From IMG/VR virus record IMGVR_UViG_3300024343_000011: a stretch of 64,000 nucleotides of DNA. The stretch is one strand, 5' to 3'. Positions 2,337-51,391 of the stretch are shown here, piece after piece; positions within the stretch are counted from its first letter, which is position 1, and each line of letters starts with the position of its first letter. Below the pieces are notes generated by a model, which was not told the origin of the DNA, did not search any database, and worked only from the letters and a program-made list of their open reading frames with translations. Source of the stretch: an uncultured virus (IMG/VR IMGVR_UViG_3300024343_000011) (taxonomy: Duplodnaviria > Heunggongvirae > Uroviricota > Caudoviricetes > Crassvirales). Both the position numbers and the translations under genes were made by a program.

Positions 2337-2349
2337 ATTTCTTTTAATT

Positions 2350-2376
2350 AAAGAGCGACCCAGCAATCGCTCTTTT
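2350..2376. terminator. terminator-like hairpin
   Basis: AAAGAGCGA-N8-TCGCTCTTT with short T tracts on both strands. Confidence 0.45.
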
Positions 2377-2438
2377 ACAACAAAACACAACAATATTTCA
2401 CAACCTTTCGTTGAGGGCTAGTGCTGGCTAGCCTTTGT

Positions 2439-2476
2439 GCACGGGACGGGCTTCGAACCCTGTTCATATCCCGTGC
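2439..2476 (-). ncRNA. tRNA-like minihelix (acceptor-like stem + T-arm)
   Basis: GCACGGG-AUAUGA-AC(A)GGG-UUCGAAG-CCCGU-CCCGUGC. Confidence 0.55.
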
Positions 2477-2582
2477 TGTTCACCGCATCACCCCATGGTG
2501 CTCCACCCATGATTCTAAGGACTGGGACTCAGTCCAGTGTGCGTACATAGTGGTCAGTCATTCGACTGCCAAATTACTTTTC

Positions 2583-2598
2583 CAATATGTCAAAGAAC
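2583..2598 (-). promoter_or_regulatory. rrn-type boxA-like antitermination site
   Basis: GTTCTTTGACATATTG directly after hairpin CAAGACAT-AA-ATGTCTTG. Confidence 0.5.
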
Positions 2599-2690
2599 AT
2601 GGCAAGACATTTATGTCTTGTCCTTAACCCCAAGCGATCCGACTTGGCTTAGTACACGGGACTCGTGTAGGTGTTGTACTAGGTTGGGGA

Positions 2691-2852: not shown

Positions 2853-3252
2853 GTCTTAGAATTCTTAAAAAGTCGTCCGAAGTGATGAATGTTACTGCGT
2901 CGCATCCACGAAGGTTGTCGATGACTGCCTTTGGCTTAGCAAGGGGAGAGAAGAATACAAGGTCACCCCTTCTTTTCTCGAAGATAATCTCGTAGCACAC
3001 CTCGAAGTCTCTGACTATCTCGTATACGTTCACCAGTTCCGCTCCGCATAGTGCGTGAACTAATGACTGGGATGGGTACTCGATGCCGTATCTTACACTA
3101 TCATCGCTGAAGTCGTGACCATCCTCGCAAAGAGACTCGCTCTCGTCGTCGTGTAGTTCGTAGACCTCGTAGTTGGCCTCGTGTAGGTACTTGGCAACCT
3201 TGGGTTGCACTATGTACCATGTGAATCCGTCTTGTGTTGTGAATGTGTTCAT
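2845..3252 (-). CDS. hypothetical protein
   Basis: MNTFTTQDG...VYELHDDESESLC; start follows a promoter. Confidence 0.65.
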   Translation of the reverse strand: MNTFTTQDGFTWYIVQPKVAKYLHEANYEVYELHDDESESLCEDGHDFSDDSVRYGIEYPSQSLVHALCGAELVNVYEIVRDFEVCYEIIFEKRRGDLVFFSPLAKPKAVIDNLRGCDAVTFITSDDFLRILRHG

Positions 3253-3261
3253 ATCTGTACG

Positions 3262-3293
3262 CAATATTAGTTACTATCTTGTTTATAACCTAA
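3262..3293 (-). promoter_or_regulatory. Bacteroidota-type early promoter
   Basis: TTAG-N20-TAATATTG. Confidence 0.55.
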
Positions 3294-3305
3294 TTTATTT
3301 GTCAT

Positions 3306-3503
3306 TTAATTGTCATTTAATAGCACAATTGATGTGAGCATGCTATTGTTTTCGTCGTGCAAGTCCTCGAACACAAAGTTGATTGGTGTTACGTCTGAGT
3401 CCTCGTCATGTCTGAAGTTTATCTCGATGAGAGATAGGTCGTTGCCGTCTGACTCAATCTCATTGAGGAACTGGCGAAGTTGTAGTGCTGTTAAATTGCT
3501 CAT
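3306..3503 (-). CDS. hypothetical acidic protein
   Basis: MSNLTALQLRQFLNEIE... Confidence 0.55.
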   Translation of the reverse strand: MSNLTALQLRQFLNEIESDGNDLSLIEINFRHDEDSDVTPINFVFEDLHDENNSMLTSIVLLNDN

Positions 3504-3505
3504 GA

Positions 3506-3775
3506 TTAGTCCTCCCATCCATTAGACCAATACCTTACAGCGTTGGCGTACGTTCCCTTTGTGCATCCTTTTAACTCATCCCGTGACGGGATAACGTTTC
3601 CGTAGTAGTCGGTGAATGATTTCTTTGGTAGCATGCAGATACCCATCTCGAGCAGTCGCATTGCCTCGCGTCCCATTGAGCCCTCCATCTTCCAAACGGA
3701 TCCGTTGTTGATGAGTCGTTGCATGTAGTCAACTCCCGCTGACTTTTGTCTTGAGTAAATTGTTTGTATGTTCAT
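3506..3775 (-). CDS. hypothetical phage protein
   Basis: QRLINNGSVWKMEGSMGREAMRLLEMG, a motif typical of small phage proteins. Confidence 0.65.
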   Translation of the reverse strand: MNIQTIYSRQKSAGVDYMQRLINNGSVWKMEGSMGREAMRLLEMGICMLPKKSFTDYYGNVIPSRDELKGCTKGTYANAVRYWSNGWED

Positions 3776-3984
3776 ATCTTGTTTTCTTTAACCCATATAA
3801 CCATAAGTTCATTTATTTCACCAATGATTGTTTGTCTGTACTCTGAAAAGAATTTTGTTAACATCTGATTGCAGTCCTCATCATTTAATGATGGAGGAAT
3901 TCCGTTGGCCATTTCAATTGCATTTCGCATGTCGTTGGCGTGCCATGATAGGCAAGAGTCGGTGATAAAGTTTTTGTTGTTCAT
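3772..3984 (-). CDS. hypothetical protein
   Basis: MNNKNFITDSCLSWHANDM...; start 20 nt after the minihelix. Confidence 0.65.
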   Translation of the reverse strand: MNNKNFITDSCLSWHANDMRNAIEMANGIPPSLNDEDCNQMLTKFFSEYRQTIIGEINELMVIWVKENKI

Positions 3985-4004
3985 GTCTATTTGTTTTTTA
4001 TTTG

Positions 4005-4047
4005 AACCACGGAGGGGAGTCGAACCCCTCTCGTTCCTTTCGTGGTT
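4005..4047 (-). ncRNA. tRNA-like minihelix (acceptor-like stem + T-arm)
   Basis: AACCACG-AAAGGAACGA-GAGGGG-UUCGACU-CCCCUC-CGUGGUU; perfect stems and a canonical T-loop. Confidence 0.65.
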
Positions 4048-4360
4048 AGTCCTCGTCGTGTCCAAGCATCTGAGCCAGTGCCTTGTGCATGTCGAGTGGG
4101 ATAAAGTCCTCGACGTGGCTGTACTCTTTTAACTTGCCCTTGATGTGCCATACTAGGTCTTGCAGTTCGCTCACCTCGTTAGGGCTGGGCTCCACCAACT
4201 CGATGTTGGTGTCCTCGACGATGATGTTGCACTGCTCCAACTCTTGGTAGTTTATGGTGTCCTTGTTGTCGTCCAACCAATCGTGTACCTCGATGGTGTT
4301 CTCTGCATCTACTACCAACTCTGTGGCGTAGGTTCTGCTGATGATTACGTTGTATTTCAT
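4046..4360 (-). CDS. hypothetical protein
   Basis: 104-aa ORF with TAATG coupling. Confidence 0.65.
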   Translation of the reverse strand: MKYNVIISRTYATELVVDAENTIEVHDWLDDNKDTINYQELEQCNIIVEDTNIELVEPSPNEVSELQDLVWHIKGKLKEYSHVEDFIPLDMHKALAQMLGHDED

Positions 4361-5061
4361 TATTTTAGTTTGTTGATTAGGTTGATGATGTTGTCCAATT
4401 GGTTCATGTGAATCTCGTAGTAGTCGTCGCTCCTTGAGTGGTTGTGCAGTTCGTTGAACTCGTCCATCGCCACGTCCAATGTGTGTAGCATGGCATCGAA
4501 GTCCTCGGACTTGTAGTCGCCTAGGCCGGCCTGTTCTGGCTCGTCCGATGTCGCTCTTCTGAGTATCGATGTCGCTCTCTCGTGCCCCTCGACCATCAAC
4601 TCATCCACGAAGTTGTACAAGTCATTGTAACTTGGCCTTGCATAGTCGACCTCTTCTGGCTCGTCTCCCTCTCTCATGAGGCGGTACTCGGATCCACTAG
4701 CGCAGTCCCATATAGCCTCTTGGTCATGGTGCTGTCCTAGAACGATGGCGACCTCCTTGGTCTGCACGTTCTCTGAGATGTCAAAGATGAATCGGCCAGC
4801 GTTGACCCAGCATCCCATGTAGTAGTTCGGGTCGGCCAATTGCTCGGCATGGCGGAGGAAGTAAGACCTACCGAATGCGATAAGGTCGCAACCACTTGGA
4901 GCCGTCTCCTCGTATCCCTTGATGGATACCATGAAGCCTTGGTCGGGGTTGTGGTCGCCCGTGTTGATGTTGTAAGAGAAACCGATGTGGTTTGTTTCAG
5001 CGTTGCGCAAGTGTGCGATGAGTGTGTTGTGGCTAGTGCCCATTACGATAGTTGATTTCAT
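4360..5061 (-). CDS. hypothetical early protein; N-domain resembles a domain in the giant virion protein
   Basis: GFSYN...GFMVS...MGCW...FDIS...AIVLGQHHDQEAIWD; start reassigned to ATG 5061 after a promoter. Confidence 0.7.
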   Translation of the reverse strand: MKSTIVMGTSHNTLIAHLRNAETNHIGFSYNINTGDHNPDQGFMVSIKGYEETAPSGCDLIAFGRSYFLRHAEQLADPNYYMGCWVNAGRFIFDISENVQTKEVAIVLGQHHDQEAIWDCASGSEYRLMREGDEPEEVDYARPSYNDLYNFVDELMVEGHERATSILRRATSDEPEQAGLGDYKSEDFDAMLHTLDVAMDEFNELHNHSRSDDYYEIHMNQLDNIINLINKLK

Positions 5062-5117: not shown

Positions 5118-5516
5118 TTATTTTCTTGATTCTATCCAAAGTTTAGCGCGATAGTTCATCTCTGACTCAGACATTACCACGTCGATGAAGTCGGTTCCCT
5201 CTAGGTTCACCACGTTCAACTCTATGATTTGGTTTCCCTCGTCGACAGATACGTGGTATCCGTTCTCCTCGAACCATAGCCATGCCATCTGAAATTCAGT
5301 CCTACTTGGGGCTTGGCTCATGACTTTGTGTAGGTCGGTATCTTGGAAGTGCATCTCGCTTCCGTCCAAGAAGTACAAGGTCTGACGTGTGCCGTCGATG
5401 GTCTCCACGATGTGGGCTCTGACCTCGCCGTGCTCGATTACTTCGTACATGCTGTCGTCCTCGCTAGAGATGATGTAAGGCCATTTTACTTCGGGTAATT
5501 TGTTTAAGTGCTTCAT
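5118..5516 (-). CDS. hypothetical protein
   Basis: MKHLNKLPEVKW...; start 20 nt after the hammerhead cleavage site. Confidence 0.7.
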   Translation of the reverse strand: MKHLNKLPEVKWPYIISSEDDSMYEVIEHGEVRAHIVETIDGTRQTLYFLDGSEMHFQDTDLHKVMSQAPSRTEFQMAWLWFEENGYHVSVDEGNQIIELNVVNLEGTDFIDVVMSESEMNYRAKLWIESRK

Positions 5517-5530
5517 GTTCTTGTTGTTTT

Positions 5531-5586
5531 GGTTAAGATGGGGTGCTTCCACCCCATTTCGACTATTAAAGTCTCATCAGTTAACC
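5531..5586 (-). ncRNA. type I hammerhead ribozyme (AUC cleavage)
   Basis: GGUUAA-CUGAUGA-GACU-UUAAU-AGUC-GAAA-UGGGGUG-GAAG-CACCCCA-UC-UUAACC: complete core and three stems. Confidence 0.9.
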
Positions 5587-5880
5587 TTATTTTGATACGA
5601 TGCTATGCTCTTTGATATGTATGGCACAATCATATTCGCAGTTGATTGTTGTGCGCTCGTATCGTGTTCCTCCTTTGGCCGATTGACGTAATACCTTTGT
5701 CAAGTTCGCATAGTTGTAGGGGATGTCCTTGAACGTGTAGATTGGAGAGGTCTCCTCGATTAAGGTCACCGATAATGGCGTGTAACCTAGTTTAGCGATG
5801 CCATTGTACATGGCTTTGATGTTGGTGTACACGTCCGTGTGAAGGCCGTCCTCACTTAGATTGATTGAATAGATTTTCAT
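5587..5880 (-). CDS. hypothetical protein flanked by two hammerheads
   Basis: 97-aa ORF. Confidence 0.7.
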   Translation of the reverse strand: MKIYSINLSEDGLHTDVYTNIKAMYNGIAKLGYTPLSVTLIEETSPIYTFKDIPYNYANLTKVLRQSAKGGTRYERTTINCEYDCAIHIKEHSIVSK

Positions 5881-5894
5881 GTCGTTGTTGTGTT

Positions 5895-5961
5895 GGTTAA
5901 GACATGGATGAGTTCGCTATGCTCACCCATGTTTCGGTCATTCAGACCTCCTCAGTTAACC
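5895..5961 (-). ncRNA. type I hammerhead ribozyme (GUC cleavage)
   Basis: GGUUAA-CUGAGGA-GGUC-UGAAU-GACC-GAAA-CAUGGGUGAG-N9-CUCAUCCAUG-UC-UUAACC. Confidence 0.9.
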
Positions 5962-8784: not shown

Positions 8785-10356
8785 ATGATCGTAAAACAAG
8801 TAGACTTCGGCATCGAAGCAAGGGAGAAATTAGTATCTGGAATAGATATTATCGCAAATGCTGTTAAAAGCACGCTAGGCGCTAGGGGCCAGACAGTCTT
8901 AATTGAATCAGACCAGCACACTCATGGCTTGGCGATTACAAAAGACGGGGTCACGGTCGCAAGATCTATCTATTTAGAGGACGCTACCCAAAACTTAGCC
9001 GTTATGATGGTAAAAGAGGCATCCGAGAAGACGGCAACAGCTGCAGGCGACGGAACGACAACTTCTATCGTACTAACCCAAGGGTTAATCCATGGCTCGC
9101 AGCAGTTCATGAAGGCCGAGGACAACCCAACAAAGGTGCTGAGAGAGGTAAAAGAGCTAGCACTGTCAGTTGCGCAGGCATTGGACAGCATGGCTATCCC
9201 CGTTACAGACGATTCTATGGCCTCTGTAGCCACGATCTCCGCAAACAATGACCCAGAGCTAGGGCAGATCATCTCAGACGCTTACAGCATGGTCGGAAAA
9301 GACGGTGTGGTGACCGTTGAGACGTCTCAAAGCTCAAAGACTTACTCTGAGGTGGTATCTGGCATGAAGCTGGGCCGCGGATGGATGTCAAAGTACTTCG
9401 TGACTGACCAGAAGAAGGGCGAGGCGATCCTAGAGGACTGCTACATCTTAATCTCAGACCAGGAGATTACTTCATTGAACAATATCGAGCACCTGCTGGC
9501 ACCGGTTGTGCAGAGCGGTAAGAGCATACTAATTATCGCCGAGATGTCGGAGAACGCACTGAACTCTCTTAACCTTAACAGGCTGAAGGGTGTGATCAGG
9601 GCATGCGCTATCGTTCCACCGAGCTTCGGTCACATGAGATCCGAGATCATGGAGGACATCGCTGCGGCTACCGGGGCACGATTCATCTCTGACGGAACCG
9701 GAGACAATCTGTCTCTGGTCTCGTTTACTGATTTAGGCCATGCCCAGAAGGTGGTGGTCGGAAAGGAGTCGACGATTATCATCACCGACAACGATCTATC
9801 AGAAGAACTTGCTTCTAGAATCGAGGGCATCCGCAATAACCTTGCAGAGGCTACCAACGAGGGTGTGAAGAAGTTCTTGGAGGAGAGGCTCGCTAACCTT
9901 GCGGGCGGCGTTGGCGTTATCTACGTCGGAGCGCAGAGCGATGTCGAGATGAAGGAGAAGAGGGACCGTGTAGAGGACGCAGTGTACGCGACCAAGGCGG
10001 CGATGGAGGGAGGCATTCTTCCTGGCGGTGGTATTGCACTGCTTAACATAGCCGGCGAGATCTGCGGATGCTCTACAGCTAAGAGCATTATCAAGTACGC
10101 ACTGCAGCAGCCATTCAACGTGATCCTAGAGAACGGCGGCTATGACCCGAACGAGGTAAAGGGGGACATTGCCCTAAACTATCAAAATAGTTTCGGGTAT
10201 GGATTCGACGTGAAAGAGGGTGTTGTAGGGAATATGATCGAAATGGGAATCATCGACCCATTAAAGGTTACCAAGAGCGCATTGGAGAACGCTGTCAGCG
10301 TTGCAACGACGATCTTGAGCACCAACTGTATCATCACTAACGTAAGAGCAAAATGA
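8785..10356 (+). CDS. groEL: chaperonin GroEL (phage-encoded)
   Basis: VKSTLG, ITKDGVTVA, AGDGTTT, ERLANLAGG, RVEDA, GIIDPLKV motifs; no GGM tail. Confidence 0.97.
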   Translation: MIVKQVDFGIEAREKLVSGIDIIANAVKSTLGARGQTVLIESDQHTHGLAITKDGVTVARSIYLEDATQNLAVMMVKEASEKTATAAGDGTTTSIVLTQGLIHGSQQFMKAEDNPTKVLREVKELALSVAQALDSMAIPVTDDSMASVATISANNDPELGQIISDAYSMVGKDGVVTVETSQSSKTYSEVVSGMKLGRGWMSKYFVTDQKKGEAILEDCYILISDQEITSLNNIEHLLAPVVQSGKSILIIAEMSENALNSLNLNRLKGVIRACAIVPPSFGHMRSEIMEDIAAATGARFISDGTGDNLSLVSFTDLGHAQKVVVGKESTIIITDNDLSEELASRIEGIRNNLAEATNEGVKKFLEERLANLAGGVGVIYVGAQSDVEMKEKRDRVEDAVYATKAAMEGGILPGGGIALLNIAGEICGCSTAKSIIKYALQQPFNVILENGGYDPNEVKGDIALNYQNSFGYGFDVKEGVVGNMIEMGIIDPLKVTKSALENAVSVATTILSTNCIITNVRAK

Positions 10357-41707: not shown

Positions 41708-44700
41708 ATGCCAAATAAAATAGACGCTCTTTACTCAGAAGTATCCAAGTCATACGAAGTAGGCTCGATTGACGACTTTAAGAAATATTTGGCCGACCCT
41801 AAGAAGAGGCAGTTGTTTTTTAAGGAAGTAATTGCACCTGAGTATGACGTGAAGTCTATCGAAGACTTTGACGAGGCATACGGATTTAAAAAAAAAAGTA
41901 CGGAGTCTCTTTCTCAAGGGGCTCAAAAAGATATTTTCTCGGTTTCTGGAGAGACGCCGAAAGCTGGGCCTTCGGCGCCTTCTGTAAATCCTCCAAGCAA
42001 TAAGCTTCAAGAGGAATTATTCCAAAAGTCAAGACTAGCCGCTAGCGCATTTGTTAATCCAATGAAGCCGGGGTATACCCCTGTCCCAGAGGCCGAGGCA
42101 AAGAAAGCTTTTTATGGTAAGGCTAATGTAGAAGCGGGAACTCTTAGGGGGATTCCTGGCGAGACAAAAAGCACCGTAGCCAATCTTAACGACAAGTATA
42201 AAAAACTTGGTGTTCAATTTAAAGAAGCTCCTAGTAAAATTCAGAAAAGTTTTGGATTAGGAGACATTGTCGTAACGGCAGACGATGGGTCTACGCACAT
42301 TGTTCAGTCTACAGGTGCTGATGAAAAATTGAGAGAAGAGGAAGCAAAGTTGCAGGAATTCCTAATGGGTAAGTCTGCTGGTGCAGAAAAGAAAGAGGTA
42401 ACTCCTATGGATTTCTTGATGATGTCAAGAGATGGTATATCTCCACAAGAAGAGGGCAAGTTTAAAAGAGTATACAGCCAAGAGATGGTTGACAACTCTA
42501 TTAAGTTTGCAAATGACGAGTTAAACAATACAAAGAAAGCTGTAGACGATATCAACAAAGAGGTATCTCAATTGAACGAAGAAGCCAAAAAGATATCTGA
42601 GATAGTTGCAGTAAGTGGAGTTACTCCAGAAATTGAGGAAACGTACAACTCAATTACTCAGAGATATCAAGACTTACAGGCAAGAGCAGATGAAAGAGTT
42701 AATTATGCAAAAAGCATAGCCACATTGGCTGATGAAGGGGTGAAGAAAGCAGCTGGTGAGAACACTCGTCTTTTGTCATACAATGGAAATATTCCTAGCG
42801 CATTGTACAACTCTCTTTTGAAAGGAGCTAAAGATTTGGTTGGTGGAGCAATGGCTGCACTTCCAGAGGTGGCCGATATTGCTACATTGGGTGCTTCTGA
42901 AAGTTTTTATGGAGACAAGGTGCAAGCCAAGGAGGATTCTAAAAAGTTTCTTGACGAAATATATGACAACTTAAAAGCAGATGGTGTTTCAAAAGAATAC
43001 ACAACGCAGGGCAATATGGCGTGGAAAGCCTTGTTCTCTGTTCCAGAATTTATACCATCTTTACTAGTTCCTGGTGGAGCTGCCGCTAGAGTAACAGCTA
43101 TGACTACTCAGGGCATTGGCAGACGATACGAGGAGATGAACAGTAATCCAGAGACAAAGAATCTTATAGAAGAGGAAAAGTTCTTTATGGCTGCTGGGCC
43201 AGCATTGGTAGAGGCCAAGCTCGAGAACTTTGGTTTAACACAATGGCTTGGTGCCAACAAAGGATTGACATCTTCGATATTTGTTAGTGCACTTTCTAAG
43301 GTAGCTCCAAAGGCTGGCATAAGAGGCCTTAATAAGATCATCAATGCAGAGATAAATAATTTGGTCTTGAGAGGAGCGGCCAATACAGCTGGTGCAATGA
43401 TAAGCGAGTTTGAAACAGGAGCTCTTCAAAACATTTCAGAGACTGCGTTTAGAGATGCATACGAAATAGCAAAGGATAAAAACTTATTCAAGCAGCCTGG
43501 GTTTGGTGAGGATGGATTCAAGAAAGCGCTGTTAGAAGACGCAATGCTAGAGAGTCTGGGGGGTATGTGGATGGCCGGAGCTGTGAATATTGCACAGCAA
43601 ACATCAAGCTACATTACCGGAAAGTCTAATACAAATGAAACGTTTAGACTTGTAAAGCAAATACTTGCAGACGAAACTACATCAAAGTCTTTGATCGCTA
43701 CTCTAAAGTCTCAGATAATGGATGGAAAGCTTTCCAAGGAACAAGCCGTAAATACCATTAACAACTTTAACGAGGCCCGTGCTATAACAATGGAGTTGCC
43801 TCAAGACCTTAGCGAAGACAATCAAAGAAAAGCATTTGACTTAATTGCAGAGAAACGTAAGCTTTCAAAACAAATTGAAGGTAAAGATCCTTCATTAGTA
43901 GATAAACAAAAAACGCGTATAACCGCGATTGACCAAGAACTAAAAAACATATCAAATGCCGTTCAAGAGCAAACAACAAGTGAAGTACCTGTACAGCCAG
44001 AAGCCAGAGTTGGCGAAGAAGTGGTCGAAGGAAAACCCCAGCCAGAACCTGAAGTCGTTACCGAAGAAGGTCAAGTCGCAAAAGAAGAAATAGCCACAAA
44101 ACAAAGCGAGACCGAGTCAAAAATAAAAAGAAAAGATTTATTTGATGGCGTTGGAACTTTTTCAAGGCAACTAGGCGGCAGCGATGTGGACGCTGTTCCG
44201 GTATCTCATTCAGAGAATAACGGAATAGAGTTTGTTCAATACGCAAACCCTAACACCGGATCTATAGATGTCGTTGTAACGGGTACTTCAGAAAATGACT
44301 ATGTAGGGTTTTATAGGATTTACGAAAACGGAAAACCTACAAATAAATGGAGTTCGAAGTTTGAAAACCAGTCAAGAAACAAAGAGAACTTTAAGACTAT
44401 GATCAGTGGTGTACAGTCAATGTTGCCAAGTGATCACGAGTATACAGAAAAAACAAGTATCTCTACCGATGGACTTAGAGTTTGGAACCAGCAACTTGGG
44501 CGAGGTTATGAATTGCAATTTGATGAAAAAGGAGATGTAGTAACAAATGAGGTGTCTATCAATGGTGATGCAATTGTAAATGAACTTGGTGTAGATGTAG
44601 TTCCAGGAAATTTCCAGAATATTTCGGTGACAACAAACGATCAATTTGACAAGGCAAAGAAAGCCATACTTCCATACTTAGAAAGTATGGGACTTGGTGA

Positions 44701-47700
44701 GTCTAATATCAAATGGGAAAATGGAACCGTAAAGATAGACTTACCAGTATTAAAAAAGAGTACTACTGTTAAAGATCAAAAGGAAGTATCAGTAGATAAA
44801 CAGGCAATTGCCAATAACACATCACTAGAAGTAGACTCTATTAAAAACGCAGCTGTAGACGTAGAAACTGGCCAGACGTTTAACATAGACGGAACTGTTT
44901 ATACTGGAGGTGGATTAGTTGTTCCTGTTGCAAGCCAAAACTTAACACAAGAAGAGCTTACCCCAGAGCTAATTGCTGACTTTGTAGAACAAAACAAAAG
45001 CAAGGTAGGGTCAAATGCTGTAAAGGTTGGAATTTATAAGTTCCCGAATAGTAACAAAGTATCTATCGACTTAAACATAGTGGTTCCAAGAGAGAATAGA
45101 GAGGCAGCTCTTGAGTTTGGAAGATTGTCGGGACAAGAATCATTGTTTGACTTGGATACTTTCGAGAACGTAAAGACTGGAGCAGATGGAAATAACCCGA
45201 TAGAATTTAACGATGATCAATTTGTAGACATCGCAAAAAAGCTAGAAAGTGGAATTGTTCCAGATGTATCTGTGCAAACAGAGTTCGATCAGGCCTTGAA
45301 CAAGTCTGCTCAAGCACTTAACATGGTGGCACCGGGATTAAAGGTGATAGTGGGGGAGAATATTGACGATGTACAGAACCAAATCGTAGAGGCACTAGCT
45401 CCATTAGTTGGCGAGAGACAGGCCGTAAAGGCATCCGAGGAGTTTGCCCAAGGCACTAGGGGTCAGACAATCTTTGTTGACGGCAAGCCAGTAGCTATTG
45501 TATTCGATAAGACTACCGCGGATAGCCGTACAATTGGACACGAAGCATGGGAGACAATGCTGAACGATGCGTTCGGCAACGACCAAGCCAAGTTCAAGGA
45601 GTTTACAGCAGGCATCGACGCACAGCTAAGGGCTCAAGGTTTTACTGATATCGCTGATGCTTTGGATGCATTTGCCAGCCAGAAGGGCTACGAAGCCGTA
45701 AAATACTCGGAGTACATGGCTGAGCTTGGAGGTATGTTGGTAGAGGCTGGCTTCGGAAAGGGATCACTAACGGCTCAACAGAAGACATTACTACAGAAGA
45801 TCGGTGACATCATCAATAAGTTTGCTGAGCTATTCACCGGCAAGAAGCAGTTTTTAGATCAGGCTACTCCAGAGGATATCCTTGGATTCATGGTGACCAT
45901 CTCTGAGAAGGTTGCTAAGGGTGAGGACGTGTCAAGCTTCTTTAGAAAAGGCGAGAAGGCTAAGGCTAAGGAAGGCGTGACATCTAGAAAGCAGGCAGAG
46001 AAAATATTCACAGGAGAAGAAAAGGTACCTACATTCAAGAGCCTTCCAGAGATAGCCAATTGGCTTGAGGGTTGGTCCAAGAAGAATAAAATATTTGCAA
46101 AAGACATAAAGGATGTATCTGATCAAGAGTTTGTAAAGAAGCTTGAGTCTCATACATTAAAAGAGCTAGCGGCTTGGGATGGTGTTCGTGGTCAGGACTA
46201 TGTAAGCTTCTATGTTGGAGATATCGTAGATCGCCTTAATCCTAAATTGCAAAAATTCGCAGAGGCTAGATACGGAAGGATGTTGACTCCAGGCGAGGTA
46301 ACTCTTTACCACGCTGTCAGCGGATTTGCATCTCCACAGGCAGATCCTATGTTTGACTCTAGTAAGGGTCTTGAGATATTCGACAAGTACATGAATGGTG
46401 GAAAGCCAGATGTAAATAAACTATCTGGTTATGCTGACAAGCAAGCTACTATATATGAATTAAACGACAAAGGAAAGAAAGTAGATACAGGTAAATTAAA
46501 GTTTGACAAAGAGGGAAATCCTGTTTACTCTCAAGTCTCAATGCACTACGCTGTACCTTCTTTGAATAAAATGAAGGCCATGATATCTCATTTTGAAGGA
46601 GATGTTGAAAAGGCTATGGAATGGATGACATCTATCCACTCTTACGAAGAGATATCCGAAGTAATGGGTACTCCATTAAAAGGGGCTAAGGCTCTTACTC
46701 CTCACGAGAACTTGAGCAAGGAAGACGGTGGATTTGGTATCTTTGGATTTACTGGTGCCAAGTTGGGATCTTATATCCTTAACAGGGTCGGAGAGTACTC
46801 TACGGTTACCAAGGACATGTGGTACGCCAGAACAATGGCAAGACTAGTTGGCGAGCCATTGACAAAAGATGGCAAGGCCATGACAGACCCATGGGCAGCT
46901 GGCACTGTTGCTGGTGTGAAGAAAAGAAAACTTGCAGATCAGGCTTGGGAATCAGTTGCTAAGAAATTAAATATTAGCCCGTCTGACGTTCAAGAAAGAA
47001 TGTGGGACTTTGAGAAAAGACTTTATGAGAAGATGGGTGCTATAGAAAAGGCATCTTACGCCTCAGAAGGTTTCATGAAGACCGCAAAGAAGCTTGAGCC
47101 AGGCTTAGATCTAGAGACCAAGGTGGTGGAGTCACGCTCACAGAAGAATGTACCACCGGTAGTAGACGAGGTTCTTACCGATGACGGTAAGGGCAACTAC
47201 TTATTCGTTCACTACTCTGATGAGAATAGAGATGTGATCAAGCCAATGTCAGGATCTAAGAGCAACTTCACAAGCCGTGAAGAGGTATCTGCGATATCTG
47301 CAGTAGGTGGTGTTGCAATGTACTACACAAAGTCCGGCCAGAAAGAGAGCGGTGTTGGTAATGTTCCACACACAGTTTTAGTTCCAAAGGACAAGGTATA
47401 CTTCTACGGAAGCACAAAAAAGGGGACCGTCTCTCACGATCCAGAAGGATTCGAGGAAGAGGCAAGACAAAGATTCCAGGCCTACAGGAACCGTGGAAAC
47501 GAGGACAGACCAACAAAGTATGCGTTTGATGCAAACAACTCAGCAGCTTGGGTGACCAAGGTTGCCGGTGAGAATGGTTACGACATGCTAGTTACCAACT
47601 GGGGAGGACCTAACAGTTACCGTGCTCAGACTACCAAGGCATTAAAGCCAGAGGCAGAGTACACTGGTTTCAAGAAGCCAGAGCCTGTGGTATTTGAGGT

Positions 47701-50700
47701 AGGAGACGAGGTCTTCTTGTATGGAAGATATGCTACTATTGTAGCTGTTGATGGGGACGTCCTTTCGTATGAATCTCAAAACGACTTCGGAAGATTTGAT
47801 ACTGGTAAGTTCACGTTGTCACCATATACAAGCTACAAGATCACAATGATCGAGAAGGCTAAGCCGTCTGTTACAACTCGCTCTCAGAAGGTAGAGGTAA
47901 AGACCATCCCTGGATACGACAGAATGATGAACGAGGTCGAGGGTATTATGGACAAGAGCATCAACAGGGGCAGGTCTTATAATCAAACAAGCGCTAACGC
48001 AGTTGACTACATTCAGAAGTCATCTGTTTATGAAAGGGCAGACGATTCTCAGCGTGAGCAGATCATCCGCGACTTCAAGAAGATCAGAGGAGAGAAGTTT
48101 AAGACCGCTCCGTCTGTGGCTAAAATACTAGGCCAGATCGAGGACGTAAAAAAGGTAACAGTAAAAGAGAGCACAGCGCTTAAGGATCAGATCAAGTTGG
48201 AGGCAAAGGCAGCCAAGGACTCTGCAGCCTTTGTAAAGCAGCTCCGCATGGACATCTCTGGTAGGTTAAAGTCTATGGTTGGCCGTGGCATGATGTCTGC
48301 TAGACAGGCCACCGCTATTATCTCTCGCTACGACAAGATGAACATATTGAACCCTGTGATGCGTGACCGCTTTGTAGACTACATGTCTAGGGTATTCCAA
48401 AGCGCTGAGTACATGGACAAGATCAAGGAAGCGTCAAAGCTTAGAGCATCTATCAAGAAGGCCATGAAGTCACCTGCAAACCAAGCAGAGATTGCAAAGC
48501 TTGCTAAGGACTTTGGAGACATTGATCCGTCTCGCGTAGAGAATATTGACGACTATATTAACAACGCAACACAGATGCTAAACGCAGTGGCCAGAAAGAC
48601 TGGAGATCCATTGATGCGTAGCCTTGTGAATGCTGCTGATATGAACTCTTATATTGATATAGAGATCGAGGCACAGAGAGAGCAGATCAAGAACGAGTTA
48701 CTAGACAAGTATAAAGAATTGGTAGACGCTGGTGTATTGTCAAGCGACATGACCATCAATGAGATCAAGAAGGTCGTTGCAGCTATTGAGGAAAACGATA
48801 GCGATGCTGTAGCCAAGGAAGAGAAGGCAAAGGCCGCTGTCAAGGAAATGATGGCCGAGGTATCCCCATTGATTGTGCAGATCGTTAAGACTGGAGAGGA
48901 TCCATTCACTGGCGAGCCTATATCACTTACACAGGACGAGAAGAAGTCATTGATCGCATTGACTAATATTGACACCGACAGTCTTTCATTGTCAGAGGCA
49001 TTGCAGGTCCTTGAATATGCCAACAACTTTGTTGCAAATGGTATCACTTCTGGTATCGATGGAATGGTAAGCCTTTACCAAGGAGGACTGAATGCCGGAG
49101 AGCTAGTTGATGATGGTATCAAGTCTATCCCATTGAGCAAGTACTTCTCTGGGCTAGTTGGAAGAGTATGGGGCGAAGGATTCGCAACGCTTCCAATGCT
49201 TAACAAGTTATTATGGGGTAACACAAGGCGTGCTATAATGGTCTCTGAGAAGGCCGGAATCAATGGAGTGTCGAATGGTAAGGCCAAGGCCTTGAAGATG
49301 GTTGACAATGCTGTTAAACAGTACGTAAAGCTATTCTCGAAGACCAAGGACTTCTTGGCAAGTGAGAATGTTGTCGAGCGTGGTGTATTTGCATTCATGT
49401 CTAGAAACGTGGTCGGCGATGAATTCCAGGCGCAAGACGAGTTTAATAGGCGCAAATCACTCATTAAGGAAACAATCCAGGCGCTATCTGACGTAGACAA
49501 CAACACTGAATCAGAAATCAAGAAGGGCGAGGTCATCCAAAAGGTGTACGACAAGGTCTTGAAAGATGCCAAGAATATTAATGACGTCAAGAAAAACGTA
49601 AGCCAGATAAACCAAGACGCTGTAAACTGGTGGATAAACAAGTGGTCTGAGAACTTCGACCGTATCGACGAGGTATCTAGAAACGTGTACAACACACAGC
49701 TGTCTAGGGACATTGACTTTACACCCGACAGGTTCCAACTAAAGGAGGCACCAACAGCTGTAGAGGAAGACTTTGAGTCTGGATTCTTTGGAAACTTTGA
49801 GTACGTTGACACATCTAAGTCAGGATCACTGAGAAAAAATAACCGTATCTCTAATCTTCCAAAGGACAAGAACGGTGTTAAAACCCGTATAGTCAACCTT
49901 GACTTCGACGTTAACAATGTTAACGCATTGACAAGTGCAATGGTAGACGTAGAGACCGCTAGCTCTGTAATGCAGATGAAAGGTTTTGTTACATCTAAAA
50001 ACTTCTCAAAGCTTTTCTCAAACAAGGAAGACAAGAACCTTTACAAGAAGAGACTGATCAAGTACGTAAACCGTGCCAAGGGTGGTTCTTATGTGGACCA
50101 GAATGAGCTTTCAAAGATAAATAGAACAATTAATACCATTGCATCATTTGGTGTTGCTAAGGCATTGTTCAGTGTGTCACAGCCATTTAAGCAGTTCTTT
50201 CCTCCAATGATAAACACTTTTGTTCAGACAGGTAGGTTTGACTTAAACAAGTTGCTGTACAATGGCGGAATGGGCTTTATTGACAGTTCTGGTTATCCTA
50301 TCGCCAACCGTGGTGTCGCATCTCAGGGTGAACTTAAGTCTATCAACAGACAGTTGGTAGAGGCAGAGAAGAACTTGGCCATGCGTGGACTAGATGGTGT
50401 TGCGGAGTTTAGCAACAAGACTCTTGAAATTACACTTAAGAATCCGGACATTTTTGCTGCACGTGCCTCTTGGATTTCTTTTTACTTGAGCAAGTTGAAG
50501 AAGCAGGGTGTAAATATCTCTGGAATAGATTTCAATACTCACGAGCTAAATAAAGATGCGGCCGACTACGCACAGGCGATGGTTGACTCTCAGCAAAACA
50601 TCAGTGACACTGACATGCAGGGAGAGATCTTCGCTAGCAAGCAGCCAGCTACTGTGTTCTTGAGACGTGCCATTCTTCCATTGATGACATTTACCTTAAA

Positions 50701-51391
50701 CCAAAAGACTCGTATATGGTCTGACGTAAGAACCCTTTCAAATGACGTGTCGTCAAAAAATGACAAGGTAGAGGCGGCCAAGTCTTTATCTGGAGCGTTG
50801 ATCGAGTTAGTAGCGTTCCAGGGAATAGTACTTGCGTTCAAGGAGCTTTACAATGTAGTAGCAGCTGCCATCATGGGTGAAGATGAGGACGAAGAGGAAA
50901 AGAAAATCAGAAAGATGAGACAGTCTCAATCCACTGCTCAGGCATTCATGAAGGACTTCTTCTTGCCACCGATCCCCGGAATGGACATATTAGCTAGCAA
51001 GGGTGTCAATTACCTTTTAGACGAGACGGGCCTATCTGACGAGTTGCCATACAAGTGGTACGGTATCGAGGACGAGGAGCAGAAGTTCAGACTGTACGAC
51101 AAGATGAACAAAGGTTACTTGGACATGCTTGGAACGCAGGGTATCGCAGCTGAGAAAGCTCTTGAGCTAATCGAATACTATGACGCTGCTATCGATGGCG
51201 AGTTCACCAAAGAGTACAACGGCAATAAAGTAAAAAAGGCCCTCATGGAAGAGGACCTTGATATAGCTAGAATGAATGCTATTATTATGACTGCTTATTA
51301 TGGAGGTGTGTTACCATCAGACATGGCTAACATCGTCAACATAATGAACAAGAAGATTCAGAAGAGAGCAGAGCAGGTAGACGAGGACTAG
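41708..51391 (+). CDS. giant (3227 aa) polyvalent internal virion/ejection protein
   Basis: Last late gene; modular; GHEAWE zincin-like and TKDMWYAR glycosylase-like motifs. Confidence 0.65.
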   Translation: MPNKIDALYSEVSKSYEVGSIDDFKKYLADPKKRQLFFKEVIAPEYDVKSIEDFDEAYGFKKKSTESLSQGAQKDIFSVSGETPKAGPSAPSVNPPSNKLQEELFQKSRLAASAFVNPMKPGYTPVPEAEAKKAFYGKANVEAGTLRGIPGETKSTVANLNDKYKKLGVQFKEAPSKIQKSFGLGDIVVTADDGSTHIVQSTGADEKLREEEAKLQEFLMGKSAGAEKKEVTPMDFLMMSRDGISPQEEGKFKRVYSQEMVDNSIKFANDELNNTKKAVDDINKEVSQLNEEAKKISEIVAVSGVTPEIEETYNSITQRYQDLQARADERVNYAKSIATLADEGVKKAAGENTRLLSYNGNIPSALYNSLLKGAKDLVGGAMAALPEVADIATLGASESFYGDKVQAKEDSKKFLDEIYDNLKADGVSKEYTTQGNMAWKALFSVPEFIPSLLVPGGAAARVTAMTTQGIGRRYEEMNSNPETKNLIEEEKFFMAAGPALVEAKLENFGLTQWLGANKGLTSSIFVSALSKVAPKAGIRGLNKIINAEINNLVLRGAANTAGAMISEFETGALQNISETAFRDAYEIAKDKNLFKQPGFGEDGFKKALLEDAMLESLGGMWMAGAVNIAQQTSSYITGKSNTNETFRLVKQILADETTSKSLIATLKSQIMDGKLSKEQAVNTINNFNEARAITMELPQDLSEDNQRKAFDLIAEKRKLSKQIEGKDPSLVDKQKTRITAIDQELKNISNAVQEQTTSEVPVQPEARVGEEVVEGKPQPEPEVVTEEGQVAKEEIATKQSETESKIKRKDLFDGVGTFSRQLGGSDVDAVPVSHSENNGIEFVQYANPNTGSIDVVVTGTSENDYVGFYRIYENGKPTNKWSSKFENQSRNKENFKTMISGVQSMLPSDHEYTEKTSISTDGLRVWNQQLGRGYELQFDEKGDVVTNEVSINGDAIVNELGVDVVPGNFQNISVTTNDQFDKAKKAILPYLESMGLGESNIKWENGTVKIDLPVLKKSTTVKDQKEVSVDKQAIANNTSLEVDSIKNAAVDVETGQTFNIDGTVYTGGGLVVPVASQNLTQEELTPELIADFVEQNKSKVGSNAVKVGIYKFPNSNKVSIDLNIVVPRENREAALEFGRLSGQESLFDLDTFENVKTGADGNNPIEFNDDQFVDIAKKLESGIVPDVSVQTEFDQALNKSAQALNMVAPGLKVIVGENIDDVQNQIVEALAPLVGERQAVKASEEFAQGTRGQTIFVDGKPVAIVFDKTTADSRTIGHEAWETMLNDAFGNDQAKFKEFTAGIDAQLRAQGFTDIADALDAFASQKGYEAVKYSEYMAELGGMLVEAGFGKGSLTAQQKTLLQKIGDIINKFAELFTGKKQFLDQATPEDILGFMVTISEKVAKGEDVSSFFRKGEKAKAKEGVTSRKQAEKIFTGEEKVPTFKSLPEIANWLEGWSKKNKIFAKDIKDVSDQEFVKKLESHTLKELAAWDGVRGQDYVSFYVGDIVDRLNPKLQKFAEARYGRMLTPGEVTLYHAVSGFASPQADPMFDSSKGLEIFDKYMNGGKPDVNKLSGYADKQATIYELNDKGKKVDTGKLKFDKEGNPVYSQVSMHYAVPSLNKMKAMISHFEGDVEKAMEWMTSIHSYEEISEVMGTPLKGAKALTPHENLSKEDGGFGIFGFTGAKLGSYILNRVGEYSTVTKDMWYARTMARLVGEPLTKDGKAMTDPWAAGTVAGVKKRKLADQAWESVAKKLNISPSDVQERMWDFEKRLYEKMGAIEKASYASEGFMKTAKKLEPGLDLETKVVESRSQKNVPPVVDEVLTDDGKGNYLFVHYSDENRDVIKPMSGSKSNFTSREEVSAISAVGGVAMYYTKSGQKESGVGNVPHTVLVPKDKVYFYGSTKKGTVSHDPEGFEEEARQRFQAYRNRGNEDRPTKYAFDANNSAAWVTKVAGENGYDMLVTNWGGPNSYRAQTTKALKPEAEYTGFKKPEPVVFEVGDEVFLYGRYATIVAVDGDVLSYESQNDFGRFDTGKFTLSPYTSYKITMIEKAKPSVTTRSQKVEVKTIPGYDRMMNEVEGIMDKSINRGRSYNQTSANAVDYIQKSSVYERADDSQREQIIRDFKKIRGEKFKTAPSVAKILGQIEDVKKVTVKESTALKDQIKLEAKAAKDSAAFVKQLRMDISGRLKSMVGRGMMSARQATAIISRYDKMNILNPVMRDRFVDYMSRVFQSAEYMDKIKEASKLRASIKKAMKSPANQAEIAKLAKDFGDIDPSRVENIDDYINNATQMLNAVARKTGDPLMRSLVNAADMNSYIDIEIEAQREQIKNELLDKYKELVDAGVLSSDMTINEIKKVVAAIEENDSDAVAKEEKAKAAVKEMMAEVSPLIVQIVKTGEDPFTGEPISLTQDEKKSLIALTNIDTDSLSLSEALQVLEYANNFVANGITSGIDGMVSLYQGGLNAGELVDDGIKSIPLSKYFSGLVGRVWGEGFATLPMLNKLLWGNTRRAIMVSEKAGINGVSNGKAKALKMVDNAVKQYVKLFSKTKDFLASENVVERGVFAFMSRNVVGDEFQAQDEFNRRKSLIKETIQALSDVDNNTESEIKKGEVIQKVYDKVLKDAKNINDVKKNVSQINQDAVNWWINKWSENFDRIDEVSRNVYNTQLSRDIDFTPDRFQLKEAPTAVEEDFESGFFGNFEYVDTSKSGSLRKNNRISNLPKDKNGVKTRIVNLDFDVNNVNALTSAMVDVETASSVMQMKGFVTSKNFSKLFSNKEDKNLYKKRLIKYVNRAKGGSYVDQNELSKINRTINTIASFGVAKALFSVSQPFKQFFPPMINTFVQTGRFDLNKLLYNGGMGFIDSSGYPIANRGVASQGELKSINRQLVEAEKNLAMRGLDGVAEFSNKTLEITLKNPDIFAARASWISFYLSKLKKQGVNISGIDFNTHELNKDAADYAQAMVDSQQNISDTDMQGEIFASKQPATVFLRRAILPLMTFTLNQKTRIWSDVRTLSNDVSSKNDKVEAAKSLSGALIELVAFQGIVLAFKELYNVVAAAIMGEDEDEEEKKIRKMRQSQSTAQAFMKDFFLPPIPGMDILASKGVNYLLDETGLSDELPYKWYGIEDEEQKFRLYDKMNKGYLDMLGTQGIAAEKALELIEYYDAAIDGEFTKEYNGNKVKKALMEEDLDIARMNAIIMTAYYGGVLPSDMANIVNIMNKKIQKRAEQVDED

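Follow-up and report, generated by a model that had tools for sequence, protein, structure and literature searches.

A tRNA top-half mimic in a phage intergenic slot shared with hammerhead ribozymes: a candidate intercistronic processing signal

The C4 RNAs of phages P1 and P7 and the CI RNA of P4 are phage transcripts matured by host RNase P via tRNA-like features. They were named as precedents in the original prediction of the element described here, a tRNA top-half mimic between two phage genes, and they are real RNase P substrates; however, they are antisense/immunity RNAs of temperate coliphages and not intercistronic mini-tRNAs, that is, not T-loop minihelices repeated between genes. The t-elements of plant mitochondria are a closer analogue, with no common descent implied by the likeness. 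As reported by Forner et al. 2007 (PMC1920247), t-elements were found via the motif GGTTCRANYCC and coincide with mapped mRNA ends, which the same account assigns to RNase P and RNase Z. Hairpins consisting of an acceptor stem, T-stem and T-loop are efficient RNase P substrates according to PMC11143913, where such model substrates are described from McClain, Guerrier-Takada and Altman 1987. Lastly, clustered hammerhead ribozymes that flank single prophage genes were proposed by Perreault et al. 2011 (PMC3088659) to cut long messages. The principle is already known, then, from mitochondrial tRNA and t-element punctuation, from RNase P-processed phage RNAs and, as PMC3088659 presents them, from prophage hammerheads. 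Phage mini-tRNAs, on the other hand, were found described neither in the literature covered, outside of which subscription journals largely lay, nor in Rfam 15, and no counterpart of a phage mini-tRNA that exchanges with hammerheads was found in either.

The stretch of DNA analysed, called the window hereafter, is 64,000 nucleotides long, and in its first 7.3 kb the genes lie on the minus strand. The mimic occupies 4005..4047 on that strand and consists of 43 bases, which from 4047 to 4005 read AACCACGAAAGGAACGAGAGGGGTTCGACTCCCCTCCGTGGTT; it was recognised from its sequence and fold, from a covariance-model match, from near-identical copies in three relatives and from covariation in the family. 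When the sequence was read on the minus strand and the 43-mer was folded, every point of the structural description in the original prediction was borne out, the coding strand included. An acceptor-like stem of 7 bp (4047-4041 paired with 4011-4005) is stacked on a T-stem of 6 bp (4030-4025 paired with 4017-4012), which is closed by the 7-nt T-loop TTCGACT (4024-4018), and the two stems are joined on one side by a 10-nt linker, AAAGGAACGA (4040-4031), in which 9 of the 10 bases are purines and a GG stands at 4037-4036. Directly 3' of the stem is an unpaired C in the discriminator position (4004), with no CCA after it. The upstream gene (4046..4360, minus strand, 104 aa) and the downstream gene (3772..3984, minus strand, 70 aa from the ATG at 3984-3982) are both without a family match. 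The predicted overlap of the upstream stop with the 5' end of the element is there, the TAA at 4048-4046 covering bases 1-2 of the stem, and so is the predicted lack of a U-tract on the coding strand, where the stem passes into the C and then into the leader of the downstream gene (3985..4003, minus strand), 19 nt that are A-rich and without a Shine-Dalgarno motif. From the end of the stem to the ATG there are 20 nt, or 19 counted after the unpaired C. That the flanking genes are early, as had also been said, is plausible from their position. Two properties of a t-element are thus found at the locus, an acceptor-like stem stacked on a T-arm that carries GGTTCRANYCC, and a place on the coding strand at a border of protein genes (stop 4048-4046, ATG 3984). 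Set beside the minimal model substrate of RNase P, the element has the T-loop, a stack of 13 bp, and on its 3' side the C followed by AAA.

Taken alone, the window places the element only marginally beyond chance. The isolated 43-mer folds as described at -17.7 kcal/mol, with an energy z of -1.5, and 10 of 200 shuffles fold equally well, which is modest support; in an 81-nt context the minimum-energy fold retains the T-arm, but the outer pairing differs. A permissive descriptor (7-bp stem, 6-17-nt linker, 5-6-bp stem, TTCRANN loop) has one match in the window and at least one in 14 of 300 dinucleotide-shuffled windows. The motif GGTTCRANYCC occurs three times where 0.27 are expected, the other two copies lying antisense within ORFs of 809 aa and 1968 aa. 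A covariance model scores the element at 56.6-57.2 bits, and no further copy was found in the window, the next match with filters off reaching 15.2 bits (E 0.097) inside a helicase gene. It is the conservation and covariation in relatives that lead us to regard the mini-tRNA element as real.

A number of known identities were considered and rejected. No family in Rfam reaches its gathering score in the window. A canonical tRNA gene, real or split, can be set aside, as ARAGORN finds no tRNA gene in the window and merely 10 nt separate the acceptor and T stems; the tRNA model RF00005 has no match at E up to 10 in 3000-5000 and none at the gathering score in the whole window. The tRNA-like domain of tmRNA is likewise not recognised by ARAGORN, the third stem pair being C-G rather than G-U and the CCA absent. 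The best weak Rfam match, to the PreQ1-I riboswitch (RF00522), scores 20.9 bits where the gathering score is 39, and it requires an 11-nt insertion before the tail; in two relatives (L007 and L009) unrelated sequence takes the place of the A-rich tail and the hairpin persists. A match to mascRNA at 15.8 bits (gathering score 42.5) reflects the generic top-half shape only. The element itself is no hammerhead, having neither the CUGANGA nor the GAAA core, and no intrinsic terminator, the coding strand being without a U-tract; the terminator-like call is confined to the plus strand at 4011-4031, where no gene ends or converges. An attP site or tRNA remnant is at odds with relatives whose operons each carry a number of differing copies, and the scanned ORFs showed no integrase. 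Nor was an RNA polymerase family found among those ORFs, which speaks against a hairpin promoter for an N4-like virion RNA polymerase.

A DNA similarity search of phage sequences around the locus gave no match, and the element recurs in three other distinct phage contigs (L005, L007 and L009). The three copies match that of the window at 42-43 of 45 aligned positions and differ in the loop, which is TTCAACT or TTCAATT, and in a linker longer by one A. The 150 nt upstream align at 87/178 to 99/163 across the three contigs, and the 60 nt downstream at 33/69 to 40/69 in two of them, the exception being L005, where these 60 nt are identical to the window (60/60); overall, the flanks align at about 48-61%, this stretch of L005 excepted. 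The upstream protein is 48-79% identical across the three relatives, with 48% in two. In these alignments, the element is an island of nucleotide conservation between diverged genes. As to the T-loop, whose lack of conservation at homologous loci would have spoken against the original prediction, TTCGACT, TTCAACT and TTCAATT are what these loci keep, the variation being limited to R57 and N59. A separate observation concerns L005 (2190-2438) and L007 (1250-1482), where the upstream gene is lengthened at its C-terminal end by about 70-75 aa that neither the window nor L009 has; the extended frame still stops on a TAA that coincides with the very first bases of the element.

A profile of the upstream protein found more distant phage contigs in which the architecture is the same and the stems are others. 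A covariance-model search had been suggested as a check on the prediction; run on related phage contigs, with a model built from five gapless sequences and later from 13, it uncovered a multi-copy family, with seven copies in one record of 36 kb, three in another and two each in two more, all copies within each multi-copy record being on one strand. Model-free regex scans recover the same members. In an alignment of 39 distinct family sequences fitted to the covariance model, 96.4% of the cells pair, and shifting the partner strand cuts pairing to 19-46%; 11 of the 13 pairs show changes on both sides, and none of 500 shuffles reaches any of the measures, an earlier set of 13 sequences having shown both-side changes in 10 of the 13 pairs. 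The second and fourth stem pairs are invariant in 39/39. Scanning viral contigs with a pattern for the commonest outer stem gave at least 132 stretches, mostly chance matches in coding DNA; among the matches listed, 41 of 121 distinct inner sequences passed a hairpin parse, and 47 members from 32 sources were kept after filtering, 23 of them forming what we call class I, with the copy of the window included. In the 47 listed members, G-U pairs account for 6 of 611 and Watson-Crick pairs for 592 of 611. The distribution among terminase relatives is patchy, 25 phage records related by terminase yielding one weak covariance-model match only (G015). The pattern for the GAACTG subfamily, the commonest, has no convincing copy in 185,579 prokaryote species represented by one genome each: 105 stretches were returned, of which 5 pass the hairpin parse and none has the loops or flanks of the family, a triple match being a coding tandem repeat.

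The resemblance to a tRNA extends to particular positions. All 23 class I members have the loop TTCGATT, TTCGACT, TTCGAGT, TTCAACT or TTCAATT, each fitting TTCRANT, and all 23 have a GG within the first seven bases of the linker, as against 10 of the 24 members with other loops; for 22 of 23 the base directly after the stem is a C. In 38 of the 39 aligned sequences a G-C forms the innermost pair of the T-stem, and the corresponding pair in tRNA is G53-C61. In the elbow of tRNA, the D-loop provides a GG opposite the T-loop, and by analogy the GG of the mini-tRNA linker may dock on the T-loop in a D-loop-like manner. The element departs from a tRNA top half in having 13 stacked bp where a tRNA has 12, in lacking CCA and in being nearly free of G-U pairs. 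There are also sister elements, with the same outer stem and flanks, that have loops other than T-loops, namely AGCGATA (AGCGAWA), TTCGTTA and TTCGTGA (YTCGTGA), and linkers that form a 3-5-bp mini-hairpin, like a stub of a D-arm; they are found in the records G006, G007 and G010 and at the loci L144, L154, L158, L194, L204, L220, L228, L241, L242 and L251. In the sister subfamily, position -1 is a C. Loop type and linker type switch jointly between the classes, which suggests a contact between loop and linker, and the fact that the sister elements carry other loops implies that the function of the slot does not strictly need the T-loop.

The operon of the window also holds hammerhead ribozymes. 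A descriptor made up of the core and helices detected two, both on the same strand as the mini-tRNA: HH-A (5531..5586, minus strand), with the full core and a fold z of -3.8, in the next-but-one intergenic slot upstream, and HH-B (5895..5961, minus strand), with a fold z of -3.6. They occupy the gaps 5587-5516 and 5956-5880, respectively, and both are type I, with CUGANGA, GAAA, a UC cut site and three-way-junction folds; helix I is common to both, and helices II and III differ. In HH-A, the stop TAA (5589-5587) stands just before helix I, the predicted cut is at 5537/5536 and the ATG is at 5516; in HH-B, the TAA (5958-5956) is inside helix I, the predicted cut is at 5901/5900 and the ATG is at 5880. 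The distance from predicted cut to ATG is exactly 20 nt in each. An Rfam match to the RAGATH-1-hammerhead at 5609-5532 corresponds to HH-A and has 25.1 bits against a gathering score of 56.3. As a matter of annotation, the ORF listed from a GTG at 5552 more likely starts at the ATG at 5516.

Hammerheads and mini-tRNA thus have one layout in common: stop codon, module, 20-nt leader, ATG. Of the 23 class I members, 21 have a stop codon -2 to 8 nt ahead of the element and 18 have the ATG 18-21 nt past the stem end; among the 24 others, 23 have the ATG 17-21 nt past the stem end. The six hammerheads found leave 19-21 nt before the ATG. A complete relative, G003, has three hammerheads followed by a mini-tRNA, and in the operon of a relative an Rfam scan gave a hammerhead-like match and a real tRNA-Trp gene amid mini-tRNAs. 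The clearest evidence that the two modules are equivalent in the slot is their exchange before orthologous genes: in G010 a hammerhead stands directly before a 59-aa gene of the A1 family, the family of the upstream protein, and in G007 a class I mini-tRNA stands before the 58-aa orthologue of that gene, while G010 retains, ahead of its hammerhead, a remnant (the first bases) of the 5' strand of a mini-tRNA. A census that used the Rfam hammerhead model and accepted E values up to 0.05 gave matches in 10 of 34 related records, none above the gathering score, and in 0 of 14 control genomes; 7 of these 10 records belong to the 9 that bear mini-tRNAs, and since the records are related, such counts do not represent independent events. 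The two records with the most mini-tRNAs, G006 and G007, have no hammerhead-model matches.

The host is probably a member of the Bacteroidota, as relatives of the terminase infect Flavobacterium, Cellulophaga, Tenacibaculum and Maribacter and the leaders are without Shine-Dalgarno motifs; the terminase relatives are podoviruses of Flavobacterium and Cellulophaga at 42% and below, the best match being one of 69% to the uncultured MW202828.1. In that related phage groEL is annotated beside a 10-kDa co-chaperonin, and the window encodes a GroEL-type chaperonin (8785-10356, plus strand; Cpn60_TCP1, 200 bits; phrog_5725). After the virion genes of the window comes an ORF of 3227 aa (41708-51391, plus strand), with no Pfam match, no sequence relative in the PDB and two weak PHROG matches to families of unknown function. 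Another stretch of the window, of about 260 nt, is hairpin-rich and without an ORF on the gene strand (2343-2604, minus strand, in a wider gap of 2345-2690). It is 77-93% identical in four related contigs, shows compensatory change in 11 of 64 predicted pairs, has no Rfam match and has at its end a hairpin that covaries, with TTT after it (about 2372-2350); it also holds a looser acceptor/T-loop minihelix (2476-2438) with the loop TTCGAAG, which in three of the four relatives is TTCAAAT or TTCAAAC. From its sequence, it is possibly an uncatalogued phage RNA. Three tRNA genes were seen in related phages, at 3577-3669 and 8836-8907 of L130 (record G010) and at 15895-15967 of L134 (record G015), comprising a Gly-CCC (93 nt, unusual), a Trp-CCA with acceptor mismatches and a Met-CAT. 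The tRNA-Trp gene sits in the mini-tRNA operon, 13 nt before an ATG, and CCA follows none of the three.

By analogy with t-elements and from the sequence evidence above, we consider it somewhat better than an even chance that the element marks a processing site between cistrons for host RNase Z and/or RNase P. We infer that the mini-tRNA would be transcribed within the polycistronic message of small phage genes and be recognised by the endonucleases that process the ends of host tRNAs, which would cut the message there. RNase Z would be the most likely enzyme, cutting after the unpaired C4004, and RNase P might possibly cut as well, 5' of base 4047. With a cut on the 3' side, the upstream mRNA would end in a stable tRNA-like fold and the downstream mRNA would gain a free 5' end about 19-20 nt before the ATG, the same outcome that the neighbouring self-cleaving hammerheads would produce without an enzyme. 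A cleavage signal is the simplest reading in that the element shares slot, spacing and orthologous position with a self-cleaving ribozyme and copies exactly that part of tRNA which the end-processing enzymes read. For the processing role claimed originally, the occurrence of hammerheads in slots of the same operon and the replacement of one module by the other in relatives offer indirect support from sequence. The 3' cut by RNase Z would be favoured because it reproduces the leader of about 20 nt made by hammerheads, because RNase P, cutting on the 5' side, would cost the UAA two of its bases in this subfamily, and because no CCA follows the element, as none follows the three tRNA genes of relatives. 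In the subfamily of the window, a canonical RNase P cut would take the AA of the upstream UAA and so create a non-stop mRNA, which argues against it. The rule for RNase Z on CCA-less precursors comes from work in Bacillus; RNase Z together with CCA addition would be the host route for CCA-less tRNAs, and tRNA genes without an encoded CCA fit such a route in this host. The main facts that a processing signal leaves unexplained are the near absence of G-U pairs, which is unusual for RNA helices and would equally fit selection at the DNA level, and the sister classes without a T-loop. The constant distance to the ATG, for its part, could reflect the need of the ribosome for an unstructured leader and not a cut.

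Several other explanations have to be weighed against an intercistronic cleavage signal. The module could remain uncleaved and act as an insulator or stabiliser that blocks 3' exonucleases, separates the folding or translation of the cistrons, or juxtaposes stop and start for re-initiation. A position fixed relative to the stop codon and ATG would suit that role, as would stable helices of nearly all Watson-Crick pairs and loops that vary between classes within the same outer stem; we hold it to be unlikely, because it accounts neither for the strict TTCRANT loop and GG linker (23/23 class I) nor for a slot partner that is a catalytically complete self-cleaving ribozyme. The decoy that formed the other half of the original prediction would require release of a small RNA of about 44 nt, cut on both sides and possibly CCA-tailed, that acts in its own right, for example by luring host or defence proteins that bind tRNA elbows or acceptor ends, and this we find quite improbable. 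It is consistent with a complete top half that includes the GG and T-loop typical of an elbow, with the 4-7 different versions per operon in related phages, which are somewhat like a tRNA cluster, and with the accumulation of plant t-elements as small RNAs with an added C that PMC1920247 reports. However, lacking an anticodon arm, it would not lure anticodon nucleases, the scanned ORFs showed no linked gene for a tRNA-directed enzyme or for defence, and exchange with hammerheads fits cutting in cis better than an RNA acting in trans. The release of such an RNA would be compatible with a processing signal and not exclusive of it.

If a protein reads the outer stem and loop, be it for a translational operator, antitermination or packaging, one can understand why the outer-stem sequence is conserved, with two stem pairs (the second and fourth) invariant in 39/39, why the GAACTG/CAGTTC stem and the C-run before it are common to dozens of copies among the matches listed, and why loop and linker switch jointly between classes; but no candidate protein was identified, the subfamily of the window has another outer stem and yet the same loop and GG, and the tRNA-like details go unaccounted for, so that we think a binding site very unlikely. 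A self-cleaving ribozyme of a new class, its likeness to a tRNA top half being fortuitous, would sit naturally in hammerhead slots and replace a hammerhead before orthologous genes, and no Rfam family claims the element at its gathering score. Such a class must be judged highly improbable with no invariant core beyond the tRNA-like positions, linkers and loops that vary widely between classes, and a size of 43 nt with a single bulge, very small against known self-cleavers. The almost exclusively Watson-Crick pairing raises the question of whether the element works as DNA, be it as a hairpin that starts or stops transcription by a phage polymerase, as a repeated hairpin that recombines or is mobile, or as what is left of a decayed tRNA or attP site, and this is the setting in which the multiple copies in related phages, the terminator-like match on the plus strand (4011-4031) and, in one relative, an upstream C-terminal extension that stops exactly at the element would also find a place. 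Against it, the 45 model matches have a single orientation within each multi-copy record, and an ATG follows on the same strand at 17-21 nt in 41 of 47 listed members. The scanned ORFs yielded neither an RNA polymerase nor an integrase family, the 3227-aa protein is without a relative in the PDB, and the plus strand has no gene converging on the locus. An attP site is ruled out because the copies differ in sequence, the slot partner is an RNA enzyme, and the GAACTG subfamily has no convincing copy in the 185,579 genomes of prokaryote species. A function at the DNA level has, in our judgement, hardly any probability.

Returning to cleavage of the message, a broader scheme can be envisioned, to which we would attach a low though appreciable probability. 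The phages of Bacteroidota, whose messages are without Shine-Dalgarno motifs, may carry a set of swappable RNA-cutting cassettes (hammerheads, mini-tRNAs, variants with an extra arm and real tRNAs) that make free 5' ends a fixed 19-21 nt before start codons, such that translation of internal cistrons would depend on cleavage; the mini-tRNA would borrow RNase Z or P for this, and the released minihelix might serve as a tRNA-elbow decoy. The constant spacing of about 20 nt between module and start codon offers a clue to how translation of internal cistrons may begin in hosts without Shine-Dalgarno pairing. The purpose of intergenic hammerheads in phages, a question since 2011, becomes testable through swaps of modules in a defined slot. 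Moreover, if the element is cut as proposed, a minimal phage mimic of tRNA, 43 nt in length, recruits the enzymes that trim host tRNAs for the punctuation of an operon, and the mini-tRNA may be a compact natural part for multiplexed RNA processing.

How, then, does the mini-tRNA compare with described systems? The tRNA-like domain of tmRNA and the mammalian mascRNA likewise combine an acceptor stem and T-arm with a reduced D region, mascRNA differing in being a vertebrate family. With the hairpin substrates of RNase P, as PMC11143913 describes them, the element shares a coaxial helix of acceptor and T-stem, a T-loop cap and a single-stranded 5' leader, and this is the least structure that the enzyme cleaves. 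However, those substrates are synthetic, with 12 bp, a 3' RCCA and no bulged linker, whereas the phage element is natural, with 13 bp, a 10-nt linker containing GG and no CCA. What it has in common with the clustered phage hammerheads of PMC3088659 is the proposed cutting into gene-length mRNAs, two hammerheads of the same slot layout being present in this very operon; the difference is that hammerheads cut themselves, while the mini-tRNA, which is without a hammerhead core, would depend on enzymes of the host. With the t-elements, in the description given in PMC1920247, the likeness comprises a tRNA-like fold, a T-arm with GGTTCRANYCC, the absence of a normal cloverleaf and a location on the coding strand beside protein genes, as well as borders proposed as RNase P and RNase Z sites that make mRNA ends, partly mapped in t-elements. 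In contrast to those elements of organelle genomes, several of which have experimentally mapped ends, the phage element is minimal (43 nt, a 10-nt linker and a 13-bp stack), and it stands in a fixed slot per gene, between stop codon and leader with its ATG, where it can be exchanged with hammerheads. Should it be cut as proposed, it would be the bacterial-virus counterpart of the punctuation by tRNAs and t-elements in mitochondria, and one that is interchangeable with self-cleaving ribozymes.
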